UHGV virus genome: UHGV-0205375
Source of the DNA: a virus
Strand: one strand, 5' to 3'
Length of the DNA stretch: 17,062 nt
The notes below the pieces were generated by a model that saw only the letters and a list, made by a program, of their open reading frames with translations, searched no databases and was not told the origin of the DNA. Positions 2,133-16,215 of this stretch are shown piece after piece (position 1 is the first letter of the stretch; each line of letters begins with the position of its first letter). Made by a program: the position numbers and the translations under genes.

Positions 2133-3177
2133 ATTTCAGCGCCCGACGCTGGCAGAAAATATCAGTATGCTCCGTAACGATTTATTCGCCAGGCTGGACG
2201 TCAGCGACACGCTCCGGCGCATGGATGAAGACGTGCGGGCAAAGGTGTATGCGGCGGCGCTGCATACGGTTTACGGTTACATCGATTATCTGGCAATGAA
2301 CATGCTGCCTGACCTGTGCGATGAGTCCTGGCTGGCGCGACATGCTGCGATGAAACAGTGTCCGCGCAAGGGGGCCACGGCTGCCAGCGGGTATATGCGC
2401 TGGGAAGGTGTCAGCGATGGCCTGAAGGTGACCGCCGGGAGTGTTATTCAGCGCGATGACCTGGTTCAGTACACGGCAACTGCCGATGCAACCAGCTCCG
2501 GTGGTGTCCTGCGCGTGCCGATCGCCTGCTCAAATGCAGGCGCGGTCGGTAACGCTGACGACGGTACGGCATTAATCCTGGTCACGCCGGTGAATGGTCT
2601 GCCGTCTTCCGGTGTGGCTGACACCCTGACAGGCGGATTTGATACTGAAGAGCTGGAAACGTGGCGCGCCCGCGTCATTGAGCGGTATTACTGGACGCCG
2701 CAGGGCGGGGCTGACGGGGACTATGTCGTCTGGGCTAAAGAAGTGCCCGGCATTACCCGCGCATGGACATACCGTCACTGGATGGGAACGGGAACTGTCG
2801 GTGTGATGATTGCCAGCAGTGACCTGATTAATCCCATTCCGGAAGAATCAACGGAAACGGCGGCAAGACAACATATCGAACCACTGGCCCCGGTGGCAGG
2901 CTCTGATTTGTATGTGTTCAGGCCGGTGGCACATACGGTGGATTTTCATATCCGCGTGACGCCGGACACACCGGAAATACGGGCTGCCATCACCGCGGAG
3001 TTGCGTTCGTTCCTGCTGCGTGATGGTTATCCGCAGGGAGAACTGAAGGTATCGCGTATCAGTGAGGCGATTTCCGGTGCGAACGGGGAATACAGCCATC
3101 AGTTGCTTGCACCGGCAGACAATATCTCCATTGCGAAAAACGAACTGGCGGTACTGGGGACGATTTCATGGACGTGA
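2119..3177 (+). CDS. Baseplate J-like protein (Mu gp47-like)
   Basis: 352-aa ORF overlapping its neighbours by a few codons. Size and position are typical of baseplate J. Confidence 0.8.
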
Positions 3178-8286: not shown

Positions 8287-9450
8287 TTACACATCATTAG
8301 TACCTTCCTTATTTTTTGACTGGGACAAATTTGGGACCGATGGGTTCAGGATCGAGTCTATTTGCCGTGCGTGTTCGGTAAGGTGATTAGGTGCAAGGTG
8401 AGCATATCGACGAACCATTTCGATAGACTCCCAGCCTCCCATTTCCTGTAACACTGACAACGGGACTCCGGCTTGAACCAGCCAACTTGCCCAGGTGTGT
8501 CTCAAGTCGTGAAATCTGAAATCATCAATACCAGCCCGTCTCAGCGCCGCTTTCCAGGCTGTGTTTGCGTCATACCGCATCTTCCTGACTGTTGGCGCTT
8601 TCGTTCCGTCTGGTTTGGTACAGCTTTCCTTGTACACAAATACCCAACGGTGATGATTCCCGATTTGTTTTTTCAATACGCGACATGCAGTATCATTCAG
8701 CGCAACGCCAATTGCGCGGTTTGATTTACTCTCTTCCGGGTTTATCCATGCCACCCGGCGCTGCATATCTATTTGTTGCCATTCAAGGTTGATGATGTTC
8801 GAGCGTCTTAGGCCTGTTGCCAGTGCAAATTCAACAACAGACTTTAATGGCTCCGGACATTCATCAATCAGCCTTTGTGCTTCATGGGGCTCCAGCCAGC
8901 GGATCCGTTTATTCTTTGGTTGGGGCACTTTAATAATTGGTGCCTTATCCAGCATTTTCCATTCACGCTCTGCGGCTCTTAGTAGGGCCTTTATAAATGA
9001 AAGATGCGTAGCCTTCGTTGCAACGGACGCTGGTTTTGGCGTGTATTCTGGAACAGGTTTCCCTTTTTTTCTGCATGCTTCTGCCCTGAGTTTCCAGTTT
9101 TCCTCATGACGCCGGTTCGTCATTTTCTGCATTGCTGAATAAATTTTTGATTCAGTAATGTCTCTTAGTTGCATTCCTGCGAAATGTTGAAGCCAGAATC
9201 CGATCCGGCTTTTGTCATCGTCCAGTGATTTTTTATGTGCTTTCTCTTCAAGCCACCTGACACACGCTTCCTCGAACGTTATATCAGGTATTTCACCAAG
9301 TTTGCTGACCCGCCATGCTTCAGCCTTTAGCTTGTCATGGAGTTCTGTCGCCTGCCTTTTGTCCTTTGTTCCAAGAGACTGTTTAAATCTTTTACCGTTC
9401 GGCAATGTGAAACTGGCGTACCATATTTCACCTCTGCGGAAGAGTGACAT
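8287..9450 (-). CDS. int: Tyrosine integrase, lambdoid/P22-like
   Basis: 387 aa with C-terminal catalytic region [16 protein letters not shown]...MVRRYAHL (H-x-x-R and Tyr). The 3' end abuts the tRNA-Thr fragment; P22-type integrases are known to use thrW. Confidence 0.9.
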
Positions 9451-11888: not shown

Positions 11889-12251
11889 TTAACGACCTGC
11901 TGCGCGGAGTTTTCCGTCAGGTTCACCGGCAAGAGTCAGTAACTGTCCCTGGTCTTCCTGCAGAATAGTCAGGCGACCACCGCGATTGACATACATCGGC
12001 GTTTCGGTGGTGTCTTCTTCGGAAATTTTCCCGCGGTTAGTCGGGCGAACATATGAGAGTTTGTGTTTGATTTTCACTCGGTTCTCATCAAACGGTTCGA
12101 TTTCCAGGTTGAGCGAGACCTTACCTTTGGTTTTCGTGTTCATCACACCGGAAGCGACTTCACTGAGAACTGCGCCGAATTTGGTTTCAAATACGCCGCC
12201 GTCCAGCTCCCCGATAAATGCCTGCACATCAGTACTGCGTTCGCTAGCCAT
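11889..12251 (-). CDS. Hypothetical early protein, YfdP-like by size and synteny (120 aa)
   Basis: Start at MASERSTDVQAF... (ATG at 12249-12251). The longer 226-aa track ORF extends through GC-rich structured non-coding sequence with an Arg-rich nonsense translation. Confidence 0.55.
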   Translation of the reverse strand: MASERSTDVQAFIGELDGGVFETKFGAVLSEVASGVMNTKTKGKVSLNLEIEPFDENRVKIKHKLSYVRPTNRGKISEEDTTETPMYVNRGGRLTILQEDQGQLLTLAGEPDGKLRAAGR

Positions 12252-12387
12252 TTTGCTGCTCCTCATCATATCGACCCTGCAAGGTCGGTTAGTTTCTCCA
12301 CAAAACAGAGAAGAACACCTGCGGTGACTGCCGCCCGGATGGATTGGGTTATGAGCCCGTCGTCCGGTGATGCTCTTCTCTGTTTTG

Positions 12388-12433
12388 TAAAAAGGACGGT
12401 ACCAGCCGGAAGCAAGGGTACAAGCTGGTACCG
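12388..12433 (-). terminator. Putative intrinsic terminator for leftward (minus-strand) transcription
   Basis: 10-bp perfect GC-rich inverted repeat CGGTACCAGC (12397-12406) / GCTGGTACCG (12424-12433) with a 17-nt loop. On the minus strand it is followed by TCCTTTTTAC. The large loop makes it weaker than a canonical terminator. Confidence 0.35.
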
Positions 12434-12719
12434 CCAAGACTACACACAGCATAAAGTTGTGGTGCCGGGTGCCTCCCGGTGCCTGGCGAAGGTTGCACAC
12501 CAGGCGGGTGGGTATCCACAGAAGGTCGACTGTCAGCCTCAACCTTAACCCGCGTGCGCTGAGCCGCATTCACCACAACGCTAAGGATTCTCTCTGGTTG
12601 AAAATACTTAGCTGTTATGTGCCTGCTTTTAGCCACATCAGGCGAGGTGGACCTAGTTATTCCCCAACAACAAGGATTCGGTTAATCTGGTTATCCCCAA
12701 CAACGCAAAAGGAAAAGAA

Positions 12720-13154
12720 ATGTCCGGTAATATCTATACGCTGTACAAATCCCACTGTGAAAATGTTGGAAAGTATCGGGGCATTGAAATCAGTGGGGTA
12801 GTGTCATCAGTCGAAATAAGCAAAGTTGAATCAAGGGCAACATTACTTACTCTTTTGGACCTTGTCTTACATGAGCACCGGAAGAAATTCGGCACTCCCT
12901 ATAATCAGTTGAATGGGAAAAAGGCTCTGGTTCACCTTATTCTGATGAAGCATCACTGGATGCCAAAACAGATTAATGAGATGAAATTTGATGAACTTCT
13001 TCTTTCAATTCAGGATGAACTCACACTTGATAAAATAAGCGTAACCGCCCAGAAATTTTTAGATTATCGAGACTGGAGATCACAAATTCATCACTTTGAT
13101 GATTTTGACGAAAATGAATGGGATCCTAATTTGTCTGCACAATATCTAAAGTAA
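12720..13154 (+). CDS. Hypothetical protein (144 aa), orphan gene oriented against the leftward early operon
   Basis: ATG at 12720 with AAGGA 6 nt upstream. Preceded by two direct repeats GTTAT(T)CCCCAACAAC (12656-12671, 12690-12704). The 3' end overlaps the convergent 68-aa gene by 29 bp. No recognisable family. Confidence 0.55.
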   Translation: MSGNIYTLYKSHCENVGKYRGIEISGVVSSVEISKVESRATLLTLLDLVLHEHRKKFGTPYNQLNGKKALVHLILMKHHWMPKQINEMKFDELLLSIQDELTLDKISVTAQKFLDYRDWRSQIHHFDDFDENEWDPNLSAQYLK

Positions 13155-13332
13155 CATCCTGTGATAAAACCGTGATTTCCTGATCCAGTTTTTTTAAGGA
13201 GTCTATTGTTTCCTGTCGATAAGACAGCACTTCACGAAGCTGGTTTATAGCTGCCAGCTTCTTTGTCATCCACTCATAAATTTCCTCATCTGTGTAGCCA
13301 GGCGCGACGATTTTGGGTTCTGTTTTGTGCAT
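13126..13332 (-). CDS. Hypothetical protein (68 aa), first gene downstream of the putative pL
   Basis: Start taken at the ATG at 13330-13332, preceded by GAGGAGA 7 nt upstream; the track's TTG start at 13347 lies inside that RBS. No Arg-rich N-terminus, so not obviously an N-type antiterminator. Confidence 0.5.
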   Translation of the reverse strand: MHKTEPKIVAPGYTDEEIYEWMTKKLAAINQLREVLSYRQETIDSLKKLDQEITVLSQDVTLDIVQTN

Positions 13333-13496
13333 TTCACATCTCCTCAAGTTATCAGTTACTTGTTGATGGGGACCAGATTGTTAAAGAGCTAAGCGTCCTG
13401 TAGGGCGCTTTTTTGTTGCTAACGAATCATCCTGGACTTCATATGCCCCAGGCGGCTACTTCGTGGGCGTCCTGCCTGTTCGTTGTCGGTAAAATG

Positions 13497-13538
13497 ATAT
13501 TGCTACTTAAAGTTGCAAAAATCAACTACAAAAAGTAG
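13497..13538 (-). promoter_or_regulatory. Putative OL/pL: two 13-bp operator sites (CTAC-N5-GTAG type) interleaved with -35 TTGATT and -10 CAATAT on the minus strand
   Basis: Minus-strand reading is CTACTTTTTGTAG - TTGATT - 17-bp spacer containing CAACTTTAAGTAG - CAATAT. Same architecture and 23-bp operator spacing as the OR/pR region at 15303-15344. Confidence 0.5.
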
Positions 13539-13844
13539 AAGTTAAGGGCATAAAAACGCATTTTGAAATTAATTCATTGAATTTACAGGTAAAATATTTT
13601 GGGGGCTATGATCAAAAAATTATATTGTGAAGTTAGCTGAGTTGTAGAACGTGATGGATTGTTTCATTGTGGCTGAGATCAGTATGTGATCTAGTTAATC
13701 ATCAAGTGGGGAGAAGTCAATCATGAGAGTATTGTTGAGTTTTTGGAGACTAAGTGTAAAACGGTAGGGAATTTACTACTCAATGGATTGTGTGATTTAG
13801 CCTCGATAGTAAGAAAACTAGGGCAGGTCATAGTCAAAAACTTA

Positions 13845-14129
13845 TCAAAACATAAATTTGGCGAGACCTAAAATCGCCAAGCCTGTTGCAACAGTCCATG
13901 CGATCTGTTTATTTACGGCTGATGAAATAGCGCTGTTGACTTCACTTAGGCTAGGTTTTTTTGACAACTTTTCATCTATATCTATTTGTTTTTGAAGGAT
14001 AACAGCGACATCGCGTCGGGTGTCGGAGAGAGCGTTTCGCAAATCACGAATGTCAGCTCTCATCTCTGCGAGATTTGTTTTTATATCCTCAACATTCGCT
14101 TCTAACTTAGCGACTCGGGCTTCAAGCAT
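13845..14129 (-). CDS. Small coiled-coil protein with C-terminal transmembrane anchor (XhlA-like architecture)
   Basis: Start taken at the ATG at 14127-14129, preceded by GGAGGTG 6 nt upstream; 94 aa. MLEARVAKLEANVEDIKTNLAEMRADIRDLRNALSDTRRDV is coiled-coil-like and the C-terminus IAWTVATGLAILGLAKFMF is hydrophobic. The track's longer ORF would overlap the upstream gene by 56 nt. Confidence 0.55.
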   Translation of the reverse strand: MLEARVAKLEANVEDIKTNLAEMRADIRDLRNALSDTRRDVAVILQKQIDIDEKLSKKPSLSEVNSAISSAVNKQIAWTVATGLAILGLAKFMF

Positions 14130-14196
14130 GTCATCACCTCCGCCATCTCCACCGTGTCTTCTAATTGTGGGAAGTTCACTATTAAATGGTACTACA

Positions 14197-14544
14197 TTAT
14201 TTTGCGGCGTCGGCATTTTTTTCATCTTCCGTTTTTGCTGGGAACTTTTCATTTACCCAGTTCAAAACTGAAAACGCATTTATATGAATTTCATTTCCAC
14301 AATTGTTGCATATTAGTGAAAAGTAATACTGGTTAGCAGTATCAGAATAAATGCTTTTTTCAGTAAAAACATTCACATAACTACCAAGTTTCATAGTACA
14401 TGGCATGCCCACATTCGCGCTGACTTGAGGCACAGTCAATCTGTCGTGTCCACATAGTGTACATTTTAGATATATATTCTTTTCTGAGAAATAAGAGACC
14501 AACATATCCATGTTAATCTTTTCGAATCCCTGCTCACTAGCCAT
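14197..14544 (-). CDS. Zinc-ribbon-type protein (115 aa), unknown function
   Basis: Two CxxC pairs (CTLCGH and CNNCGN) about 50 residues apart. Starts 15 bp downstream of the cI stop on the same strand, so probably co-transcribed with the repressor. Confidence 0.55.
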   Translation of the reverse strand: MASEQGFEKINMDMLVSYFSEKNIYLKCTLCGHDRLTVPQVSANVGMPCTMKLGSYVNVFTEKSIYSDTANQYYFSLICNNCGNEIHINAFSVLNWVNEKFPAKTEDEKNADAAK

Positions 14545-14559
14545 TATATGCCCTTAGAA

Positions 14560-15300
14560 CTATAACCGATTGTATTTTATTGACTCATGAATCAACGCCT
14601 TGCCCATTACATAAAGCTGATCCTGCGATTTTTCATCGATGTACCATTTCTCATAGGCAGGGTTATCCGAAAGAACGGCTAGCTTGTCACCTTGCATTTG
14701 AAGACGTTTAACATGAAAAGTCTTACCGTAAACGAAAGAGTAAATTCCATCAGTCTGGAAGTGACGAACAGAAATGTCGACAAACAGTCGATCTCCGGAA
14801 ACGAGAGTAGGGGACATACTATCGCCATTTACAGTCATAACCTTAATATCATCCTGAGAACGGTTACCGAAAAGAGAACGGGCATGTTCTGTTGTGAACT
14901 CAATGGCGTAGAGCACATCAACATAGTCTGAAAGCATATAGGTTCCAGGTCCTGCGCTAACGCTAAGATCTAAAACTTCTATCCTGTATACGTCGGGTTT
15001 AGTTGGATTGGGGATGCTTGCCATTTCCTTACATCCTTCTCTCTCGCCAACACCATATTCTAAATATGAAGCCGATACCCCCAGAGCCAACGCAAGTTTA
15101 TTCATGACAGAGGCACGAGGCTTCGCTGCGCCGATTGTGTATCGCCGCGCCATTTCATATGTAACGCCAACAAGACTTTTGAGTTGGGTGACAGAAATTC
15201 CCTTGTTTGTCATTAACTCGTTTAGTCTCTTGGCGAAATCTGGATACTTCTGTTCTTCTACCATAGGTAGAAGATTACTCACATCACATACGCTCGTCAT
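14560..15300 (-). CDS. cI: CI-type prophage repressor (HTH plus LexA/S24 peptidase domain)
   Basis: HTH region ISVTQLKSLVGVTYEMARRY and an S24 autoprotease domain with GDSMSPTL (Ser) and HVKRL (Lys). The track start at 15321 would place the operators inside the CDS; start set to the ATG at 15298-15300 (possible leaderless mRNA), with the ATG at 15262-15264 as an alternative. Confidence 0.85.
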   Translation of the reverse strand: MTSVCDVSNLLPMVEEQKYPDFAKRLNELMTNKGISVTQLKSLVGVTYEMARRYTIGAAKPRASVMNKLALALGVSASYLEYGVGEREGCKEMASIPNPTKPDVYRIEVLDLSVSAGPGTYMLSDYVDVLYAIEFTTEHARSLFGNRSQDDIKVMTVNGDSMSPTLVSGDRLFVDISVRHFQTDGIYSFVYGKTFHVKRLQMQGDKLAVLSDNPAYEKWYIDEKSQDQLYVMGKALIHESIKYNRL

Positions 15301-15302
15301 TT

Positions 15303-15344
15303 CTATTTTAAGTAGTTGCAATTCGCTACTTTAAGTAGCATTAT
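15303..15344. promoter_or_regulatory. Putative OR with divergent promoters: operators CTATTTTAAGTAG (15303-15315) and CTACTTTAAGTAG (15326-15338); pR -35 TTGCAA (15316-15321) and -10 CATTAT (15339-15344)
   Basis: Two near-palindromic 13-bp sites spaced 23 bp centre to centre between divergent cI and cro. The pR spacer is 17 bp, and the cro AGGAG RBS follows at 15361-15365. Confidence 0.55.
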
Positions 15345-15371: not shown

Positions 15372-15635
15372 ATGTCATCTCAAAACTACACCGAGAAAGC
15401 AGTAAAGGCTGCGGGAAAGTCTTTATCTGAAGTAGCTCGTCGCTTTGGTTTTAAATCTACTCAATCTGTCGCTAATTGGGTAATTAACAATCAAGTCCCG
15501 TCGGAACGAGTTTTACAACTTTGTGAGCTGGGGAACTGGTCCGTAACCCCCCATGAGCTGCGTCCTGATATTTATCCAAATCCAAATGATGGATTACCAG
15601 AGTGCTATTCAAAAGTTAGCGGTTCAGTTGCGTAA
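15372..15635 (+). CDS. Cro-like HTH regulator (YdaS-like)
   Basis: 87 aa, divergent from cI, AGGAG 6 nt upstream. The segment STQSVANWVINNQVPSERVLQLCELGNWSVTPHELRPDIY resembles YdaS/Cro-type proteins as recalled. Confidence 0.7.
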   Translation: MSSQNYTEKAVKAAGKSLSEVARRFGFKSTQSVANWVINNQVPSERVLQLCELGNWSVTPHELRPDIYPNPNDGLPECYSKVSGSVA

Positions 15636-15663
15636 ACGTAACCACAGAAACGAGGAGTTAACC

Positions 15664-16215
15664 GTGGGTAAGCATCACTGGAAAGTAGAAAAACAGCCTG
15701 AGTGGTACGTGAAAGCTGTCAGAAAAACTATCGCGGCGTTGCCGGGTGGTTACGCTGAAGCTGCTGACTGGCTGGATGTAACAGAGAACGCATTATTTAA
15801 CCGCCTTCGTGCCGATGGCGATCAGATTTTCCCGCTGGGATGGGCAATGGTTTTACAGCGCGCAGCTGGCACTCACTACATTGCGGATGCTGTCGCACAG
15901 TCTGCTGGTGGGGTGTTCGTATCGCTTCCTGAAATTGAGGAAGTAGAGAACGCCGATATAAACCAGCGCCTGCTGGAAGTCATCGAACAGATCGGGAGTT
16001 ACTCAAAGCAGATTCGTTCGGCAATCGAAGATGGGGTAGTGGAGCCACACGAGCAGACAGCAATTAATGATGAGTTGTATCTGTCAATTTCGAAGCTCCA
16101 GGAGCATGCAGCACTGGTCTACAAAATCTTTTGCGCTCCAGAAAAGAGTGACGCCCGCGAGTGTGCAGCTCCGGGCGCCGTGGCGTGTCGTGACTGTGGA
16201 GAAACTAACGCATGA
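15664..16215 (+). CDS. CII-like lysogeny regulator (CP76/YdaT-analogue class), start uncertain
   Basis: Start placed at GTG 15664 because GAGGAG lies 7 nt upstream and it falls after the cro stop; 183 aa. The track's ATG at 15553 would overlap cro by 83 nt. The family call rests on position downstream of cro. Confidence 0.45.

Follow-up and report, generated by a model that had tools for sequence, protein, structure and literature searches.

A conserved convergent module of an ECs1072-family gene and a small overlapping partner gene in lambdoid prophages

Introduction

Genes embedded against the leftward early promoter pL, whether morons or exclusion genes, and genes with an overlapping antisense partner are already known from temperate phages. 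Here we describe a gene pair with this layout in a 17,062-nucleotide (nt) stretch of viral DNA, UHGV virus genome UHGV-0205375 (the whole stretch is called the window below). The pair consists of a plus-strand gene of 144 amino acids (aa) at 12720-13154, referred to as the large gene, and a minus-strand gene of 68 aa at 13126-13332, referred to as the small or partner gene. The two are convergent and overlapping, and this arrangement is conserved far beyond the window phage. In order to place the pair, we compare it with the closest described systems before turning to our own results.

The nearest parallel in layout is sieB of phages lambda and P22. In lambda, sieB (34482-35036, plus strand) lies tail to tail with N (35037-35438, minus strand), which is the first pL gene, just left of the operator oL. 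The large gene shares this position and polarity, as it is embedded against pL immediately beyond the first pL gene. However, N and sieB abut without overlap, whereas the window pair overlaps by 29 base pairs (bp). SieB is a membrane protein; unlike it, the large protein has no predicted membrane segment, with a Kyte-Doolittle maximum of 0.84 over 19 residues, and is predicted to be soluble. Ranade and Poteete reportedly showed in 1993 that P22 counters its own SieB by means of an antisense RNA (sas) together with Esc. Esc is an internal translation product, whereas an antidote in the window would be a separate convergent gene. Homology between the large protein and SieB was rejected, as the family alignment matched lambda SieB with an hhalign probability of just 0.3%, and no match to the Pfam SieB entry was seen.

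A second parallel is the Tha/Ith pair of Staphylococcus aureus prophages, in which a small antisense gene overlaps a defence gene and encodes its inhibitor; antisense transcription favours one gene in each of the lysogenic and lytic states and so avoids autoimmunity on induction (Rostol et al. 2024, PMC11087260). Like Tha/Ith, the window pair has an overlapping, antisense and protein-coding partner that is conserved. The wiring is different: Tha is a HEPN RNase encoded in the cI operon and Ith has a constitutive promoter of its own (PMC11087260), whereas the large gene seems to be transcribed as a separate unit and the small gene from a lytic promoter. Neither a HEPN domain nor an Rx4-6H motif was found in the large protein by domain, defence-system and fold searches or in the family alignment. 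A further system, BstA of phage BTP1, needs a self-immunity element (PMC11087260), and no homology to BstA was seen (no PADLOC match). A type II toxin-antitoxin system was also considered and rejected; the genes are convergent rather than co-directional, and the small protein matched no DNA-binding domain in Pfam and PDB profile searches.

The e14 prophage, which is SfV-like, carries ymfI and ymfJ in the identical slot, between a ymfH/yfdP-type gene and a cI-like repressor gene. There, the plus-strand ymfI converges on the first leftward gene, ymfJ, with an overlap of 63 bp. The e14 proteins are unrelated to the module (hhalign, 0.1% and 0.06%), and the e14 cassette has neither the CCCCAACAAC repeats nor the plus-strand terminator that are described below. 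The ymfI-ymfJ pair has been listed as a convergent excludon on the basis of RNA sequencing, and in the late SOS response ymfJ rises by a log2 of 4.8 and ymfI by 2.0.

Finally, an earlier note on this DNA saw in this arrangement the layout of an independently regulated moron or of a lysogen-versus-lytic antagonistic pair, and the moron pattern is supported. The large gene is an extra gene, has its own terminator and a GC content of 0.38 against 0.485 for the window, is present in some relatives and absent from others, with other cargo in the same slot of close relatives, and lies near the immunity region or behind Q. That said, classical morons are single units, whereas the module described here comprises two genes that are conserved together and always oriented in the same way towards lytic promoters.

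Results and discussion

A conserved pair of overlapping genes

The two genes form a conserved convergent overlapping module that is found far beyond the window phage. The ORFs (open reading frames) of 102 loci were scanned with hidden Markov models (HMMs) of the large and the small protein, with distant members of the large family being 22-37% identical to the window protein. In 94 of these loci the large gene is convergent with, and overlaps, a homologous small gene. Two more are convergent without overlap, including one truncated copy (L138), and six have no small gene. Once the full-length large proteins are clustered at 70% identity, an overlapping partner is present in 14 of 17 lineages, and the length of the overlap ranges among lineages from 14 to 197 bp. 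A first scan of viral contigs returned identical copies only, and one of genome contigs returned three loci only.

The module is widespread, occurring in prophages of Escherichia, Shigella, Salmonella, Klebsiella, Serratia and Citrobacter. In the searchable literature we found no description of the pairing between the ECs1072 family and its specific small partner, nor of the two docking slots behind lytic promoters or the confident fold without a structural relative that are presented below; the family and PHROG identifiers led to one microarray table only.

Within the window both genes begin with ATG and are preceded by Shine-Dalgarno sequences, AAGGAAAAGAA for the large gene and GAGGAGATGTGAA for the small gene. 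Their coding regions overlap tail to tail at 13126-13154. The earlier note had thus read correctly both the plus-strand 144-aa ORF with its good ribosome-binding site and its 29-bp overlap with the 3′ end of the 68-aa ORF. An alternative TTG start at 13347 gives a small protein of 73 aa.

Families, structure and selection

The same note had described the large gene as an orphan whose protein belongs to no recognisable family, and this does not stand. The protein is a member of NCBIfam NF033230, the ECs1072 family of phage-associated proteins, at 157.8 bits (E-value 1.7e-46; the curated cut-off is 70), with residues 4-144 aligned to profile positions 2-142 of 142. It also matches PHROG 5286 end to end (1-144 of 144, 1.5e-90). 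An exhaustive HMMER search of 1.84 billion representative sequences shows that the ECs1072 family consists of 76 clusters at 50% identity, nearly all of which are stand-alone proteins of 143-157 aa. The cassette at 12560-13420 is covered to at least 80% in 410 of 5426 complete E. coli genomes, approximately 8%.

Remote-homology search and structure prediction, both of which the earlier note proposed, have yielded for the large protein a family, a confident all-alpha model and no solved relative. The AlphaFold2 model, built from a 48-sequence alignment, has seven helices with a mean predicted local distance difference test score (pLDDT) of 94.1 and a predicted template modelling score of 0.88. 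In the same alignment the residues L50, R54, L64, G66, A69, H72 and W134 are nearly invariant across the family. As modelled, the fold appears confident yet without a structural relative in the PDB or BFVD.

The small protein matches PHROG 1744 over its full length (1-68 of 68, 6e-35). Its N terminus carries the motif EPxIxAxGYxxxEIxxWM, and a coiled-coil helix comes next. The same organization is seen across the partners, where the motif generalizes to EPxIxAxG[YL]SxxE[IL]xxW[ML] and is again followed by the coiled-coil helix. A search against the PDB gave coiled-coil noise only. The matches to the partner profile are all labelled 'hypothetical', and their sources include Escherichia, Salmonella, Klebsiella, Citrobacter, Enterobacter, Kluyvera, Serratia and Arsenophonus.

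The large gene and the core of its partner are under purifying selection. The clade with 69-100% identity gives a ratio of nonsynonymous to synonymous substitution rates (dN/dS) of 0.13 in the large gene. For the partner, the value is 0.14 in the core outside the overlap and 0.59 in the overlapped tail, where dS is reduced; the opposite strand thus seems to be the only constraint on this tail. Neither ORF is a mere product of chance: the large protein has 76 clusters of conserved length, a pLDDT of 94 and a dN/dS of 0.13, and the core of the small protein has a dN/dS of 0.14. The idea that the plus-strand ORF is a chance antisense reading frame, and that only the minus-strand genes are real, can therefore be given almost no credence: it draws on the lack of a clear promoter and on a neighbouring plus-strand ORF (12457-12801) that looks spurious, and is met by a curated family cut-off, distant homologues of constant length, a confident model, purifying selection and a transcribed homologue in Salmonella phage ST64B.

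Some copies of the module are damaged on the large-gene side. An intact partner lies beside a truncated ECs1072-family gene at L110 (1280-1480, minus strand), L135, L136, L138 and L151, and prophages of this kind include one in S. Typhimurium DT104.

Two docking slots with one polarity

The module docks in two kinds of position. In the first it adjoins the repressor gene and the small gene is the first gene after pL; this is the case in the window, in Shigella phage SfIV and at L097, L102 and L103. In the second, it lies directly after the Q antiterminator gene and before the holin gene, as in ST64B and at L100, L110-L114, L133 and L139-L141. The position after Q is the classical moron slot behind the late promoter. 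At one further locus, L098, the module is embedded against the early replication operon. In every slot that we examined the small gene points along lytic transcription and the large gene points against it. In the window, the small gene is co-oriented with, and proximal to, pL, with oL and pL (13497-13538) directly upstream.

Repeats are found around the module at other loci too. At L114, a late slot in Klebsiella, the module lies between 25-nt direct repeats (2391-2415 and 3123-3147) that are 84% identical and 732 bp apart. Some related Klebsiella phages that belong to a different lineage (the L141 type) have an annotated tRNA-Thr next to the module. At L103, two direct repeats of TTxAxTGCACCTTA (2896-2938) are 29 bp apart and 63-105 nt upstream of the large gene; they have a 22-nt inverted partner at 2768-2789 and are unrelated in sequence to the CCCCAACAAC repeats of the window.

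Transcription signals in the window

From the integrase gene (8287-9450) to cI (14560-15321), every accepted gene but the 144-aa gene lies on the minus strand, just as the earlier note had it for the neighbouring early genes. Its further claims, that the 68-aa ORF is the first gene of the pL operon and that the large gene faces pL transcription, are supported by the operators. Two 13-bp palindromes, CAACTTTAAGTAG and CTACTTTTTGTAG, with a spacing of 23 bp, make up oL at 13503-13538 and mirror oR at 15303-15338. When up to two mismatches are allowed, the palindrome CTACTTTAAGTAG occurs only at two sites in 13503-13538 and at two in 15303-15338, next to cro, which amounts to seven strand-matches against 0.14 expected. 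Furthermore, a 17-nt stretch at the left operator cluster, CTTTAAGTAGCAATATC, is nearly identical to CTTTAAGTAGCATTATC at pR. Given the operator sites and this likeness, we assign pL to 13525-13497 of the minus strand; its -35 element would be TTGATT (13525-13520), its -10 element CAATAT (13502-13497), and transcription would start near 13490. No other ORF lies between this putative promoter and the 68-aa ORF, which is approximately 160 nt from oL/pL and behind a leader of approximately 158 nt. No structured, put-like or nut-like RNA was evident in the leader, which folds no better than shuffled sequences (z = -0.22), and no Rfam family matched inside the cassette.

A further site, which resembles a strong promoter, lies approximately 100 nt upstream of the putative pL. 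This promoter-like sequence (13619-13648, minus strand; TCTACA, 18 nt, TATAAT) has 10 of 12 matches and is located in a 300-bp AT-rich spacer that has no ORF.

On the plus strand, an intrinsic terminator at 13391-13417 was found by a terminator scan and by direct reading. It consists of AAGCGTCC-TGTA-GGGCGCTT followed by TTTTTGTTG, lies beyond the small gene and just before oL, and on the minus strand is a hairpin without a U-tract. It is common to the cassettes with a 171-aa cargo gene, which are described below, and is absent from e14 and SfV. A second, terminator-like hairpin at 13236-13270, with nine pairs followed by TTTGTCAT, is a match to the consensus only; it is located inside the small gene, approximately 80 nt past the stop codon of the large gene. 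A terminator implies that there is something to terminate, so plus-strand transcription should exist. From the positions of the two plus-strand signals, the large-gene transcript would be antisense to at least 145 nt, and probably to all, of the small gene.

Expression of homologues

Published data on Salmonella homologues are informative about expression. ST64B carries an unannotated 144-aa member of the ECs1072 family (hhalign, 99.9%) that is convergent with sb50, a homologue of the partner (hhalign, 99.2%), with an overlap of 71 bp. The counterparts in S. Typhimurium D23580 are STMMW_20121 (435 nt, large) and STMMW_20131 (360 nt, partner), which we equate with the ST64B pair because the sizes, the 71-bp overlap, the 161-nt gap to the holin gene and the 30-nt gap to sb49 are the same. 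According to Owen et al., STMMW_20121 has its own promoter, is expressed in lysogens and is antisense to lytic genes. In their Table S5 it reaches 61-269 transcripts per million (TPM) in 16 of 17 lysogen conditions, with 269 in InSPI2 and 113 and 105 under peroxide and nitric oxide (NO) shock, which are ST64B-inducing conditions. The partner STMMW_20131 ranges from 23 to 258 TPM (108 in InSPI2; 148 and 258 under the two shocks), the flanking holin gene from 0.3 to 33 TPM (15.8; 33 and 32) and the flanking Q-like sb49 from 1.5 to 7 TPM (2.3; 1.5 and 3.8) (Table S5). These data fit lysogenic expression of the large gene and a reciprocal, modest shift on induction.

The namesake ECs1072 of E. coli O157 Sakai was detectable in uninduced culture in a microarray study and dropped 4.4-fold at entry into stationary phase.

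Possible functions of the module

By analogy with lambda/P22 sieB and with Tha/Ith, we suggest that the module pairs an effector expressed in the lysogen with a phage-encoded antagonist made from a lytic promoter. This is the account that we lean towards, tentatively and at slightly less than an even chance. The large gene would be transcribed from its own promoter, against the lytic direction, and its product made in the lysogen, where it would act as an effector that probably excludes or aborts other phages. Its transcript would run antisense over the whole of the small gene, up to the terminator that falls short of oL and pL. The small gene would be the promoter-proximal ORF of the lytic transcript, from pL in the window and from the late promoter behind Q elsewhere. 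Firing of pL, or Q-modified read-through, would produce the small coiled-coil protein, the phage's own antagonist, which would protect the phage on lytic entry, and the convergent transcription would depress the large gene. As the units converge and overlap, strong lytic transcription should shut off the large gene and yield the small protein. The two genes are thus probably expressed in opposite phage states. For the window itself we infer the promoter of the large gene, the mutual exclusion, the antagonism between the proteins and the defence role.

Several observations weigh against this account. The large protein has no match in Pfam, in PADLOC or by sequence profile in the PDB, and a Foldseek search of its AlphaFold model against BFVD and the PDB returned nothing at E ≤ 0.001. 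Upstream of the large gene, a standard scan detected no promoter on the plus strand, and the best candidate there, a sigma-70-like site at 12660-12688 on the plus strand (TTCCCC, 17 nt, TAATCT), is weak, with a position weight matrix score of 5.72 that is only at about the 99th percentile of the window. In ST64B the partner is also transcribed in lysogens, at the 23-258 TPM given above, so expression is not strictly exclusive. Three lineages (L011, L104 and L108) have a large gene and no recognizable partner, and in some copies the partner is frameshifted while the large gene is kept. As for the counts themselves, many of the 102 loci are near-duplicates, and eight of them had served to build the partner HMM with which they were then scanned; 80 viral contigs are independent of it.

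With respect to the transcription of the partner in lysogens, promoters of the lambda late type are constitutive. In the late slot this plausibly explains the lysogenic signal of the partner.

The frameshifts arise at a T7/A7 homopolymer at 13181-13187, inside the small gene, where T8 variants change the reading frame past residue 47, which results in an ORF of 80 aa. An E. albertii copy is of this kind, as are protein clusters P0120, P0125 and P0133, which together represent at least 13 contigs. They could be due to sequencing error, decay or phase variation.

A rather different possibility is that both proteins belong to a single accessory system expressed in the lysogen, such as a sensor and effector or a toxin and inhibitor, with the overlap tuning their ratio. 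It accommodates well that both ST64B homologues are found at similar levels in nearly all lysogen conditions, that the two families co-occur and appear to co-evolve, and that selection is purifying on both. However, in the pL slot the small gene sits behind an operator-controlled promoter and should be silent in lysogens, which would leave the large protein without its partner. The same polarity towards lytic promoters in both slots, and the lineages in which the large gene stands alone, also speak against it, and we regard co-expression of this kind as somewhat unlikely.

Alternatively, the module might be a safety device of the lysis-lysogeny decision, where the small protein is pro-lytic or takes part in host takeover, and the large protein and its antisense transcript neutralize leaky expression. 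The small gene is indeed the first ORF after pL or Q, the plus-strand transcript would be antisense to all of it, and ymfJ, in the same slot of e14, is strongly induced late in the SOS response. Yet phages can do without the module or exchange it, as close relatives have unrelated cargo in its place, and its two regulatory contexts suit an accessory cassette better than a core regulator; we consider a safety device decidedly unlikely.

An account based mainly on RNA strikes us as more doubtful still. Here, the plus-strand transcript would act as an antisense RNA, or by transcriptional interference, to damp read-through from pL or pR′, and the protein would be secondary. There are precedents in P22 sas, lambda OOP and BTP1 STnc6030. 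The convergent overlap is kept despite its length range of 14-197 bp, and the terminator lies beyond the small gene. Against this stands a strongly conserved protein, with its low dN/dS of 0.13, confident fold, 76 clusters and constant length, which indicates that the coding capacity of the large gene is under selection.

To return to an effector and its antagonist, it is possible, albeit doubtful, that the ECs1072 protein and its coiled-coil partner constitute an undescribed immunity and self-immunity system of prophages, with an effector of novel fold and a dedicated inhibitor, disarmed by the lytic programme. We attach a similarly guarded confidence to the corollary that the cassette always docks in one polarity behind pL or pR′. 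The fixed polarity behind lytic promoters provides a testable rule for how an accessory function may be switched off at lytic entry. The same problem of autoimmunity has long been known for sieB/esc and was recently solved for Tha/Ith. If the large protein is an anti-phage effector, then the module adds both a new prophage defence family and a new inhibitor family.

A cargo slot and its repeats

SfV-like prophages have a cargo hotspot between the yfdP/ymfH-type gene and cI, which makes this interval a place to seek more genes of this type. Apart from ECs1072 with its partner, it holds ymfI/ymfJ in e14, nothing but orf33 in SfV and, in further E. coli prophages, a lone plus-strand gene of 167-173 aa; cargo other than the module was found in the same slot of SfV, e14, CREC-532, NCTC86 and MS15236. 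ECs1072, YmfI and the 171-aa cargo protein are mutually unrelated. YmfI, YmfJ and the 171-aa protein, which were the cargos compared with the module by hhalign, were rejected as its relatives.

A side-by-side view of 12652-13421 with L004, L002, L005 and L013-L016 shows five alternative plus-strand cargos, namely ECs1072, YmfI and proteins of 167, 170 and 171-173 aa. Those that share the left flank (the ECs1072 and 167-173-aa types) begin at the same offset after it.

The earlier note drew attention to two direct repeats immediately upstream of the large gene and suggested that they could be binding sites for a regulator. The two copies of GTTAT(T)CCCCAACAAC are indeed present on the plus strand at 12656-12704, 33 bp apart and 16-64 nt upstream of the large-gene ATG (GTTATTCCCCAACAAC at 12656-12671 and GTTATCCCCAACAAC at 12690-12704, with an exact common 11-mer). 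A third copy, which the note did not include, is inverted and imperfect (AATCTGGTCCCCATCAACAA at 13360-13379, minus strand) and lies 28-47 nt upstream of the small gene. The CCCCAACAAC repeats also precede the unrelated 171-aa cargo of other E. coli prophages, and distant homologues of the large gene are without them, so the repeats are a property of the slot and a role as regulator sites specific to the large gene is not supported. On the left, homology between the ECs1072 and 171-aa types breaks off precisely where the second repeat ends; the right-hand breakpoint falls within the inverted copy, just before the shared terminator.

The segments 12684-12703 and 13360-13379 are predicted to form a long-range RNA helix across approximately 660 nt, with pairing probabilities mostly above 0.9. 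The helix is predicted in both cargo types and in transcripts of either strand, and in the 171-aa (CREC-532) type the inverted arms match at 19 of 20 positions. The slot repeats could form a long-range RNA helix (for instance an RNase III site or a 5′-3′ clamp), serve as protein-binding sites or act as recombination linkers for the exchange of cargo.

Neighbouring features

The window is an SfV/SfIV/e14-type lambdoid prophage. Shigella phage SfIV and the Escherichia phages Kati, vB_EcoS-569R4 and vB_EcoM-689R6 match it over 12300-13487 with 98-99.8% identity. Its immunity region comprises the S24/LexA-like cI (14560-15321, minus strand), cro (15372-15635, plus strand) and a CII-like gene (15553-16215, plus strand).

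Between cI and pL, where lambda has rexAB, the window has two extra genes on the minus strand, at 13845-14252 and 14197-14544. One encodes a coiled-coil protein (PHROG 3556) and the other a protein with CxxC motifs (PHROG 4293). Neither is found in SfIV, e14 or SfV, where the pL region directly follows cI. They are candidates for cargo that is expressed in the lysogen by co-transcription with cI.

Two of the annotated ORFs around the cassette deserve some caution. The 114-aa plus-strand ORF at 12457-12801 (SfIV_35 in the SfIV annotation) is probably spurious; it extends over the start of the ECs1072 gene and matches nothing in Pfam or PHROG. The 226-aa minus-strand ORF at 11889-12569 (annotated as SfIV_34) matches yfdP-type PHROGs in residues 101-226 only; its N-terminal residues, approximately 100 in number, have no PHROG match at E ≤ 0.01 and overlap an STnc100-like element. 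At the position of this ORF in other E. coli genomes, PGAP calls a 120-aa YfdP and a 'frameshifted' fragment, and the real gene is probably a shorter YfdP.

The STnc100-like element itself (12386-12609, minus strand) is a near-threshold match to RF02076 over the full length of the model, with 43.4 bits against a gathering score of 47 and an E-value of 4e-08. It lies on the pL strand directly downstream of the cassette, and a weak DicF-like match is found inside it. A 2026 preprint relates STnc100 to the PasD small RNAs.

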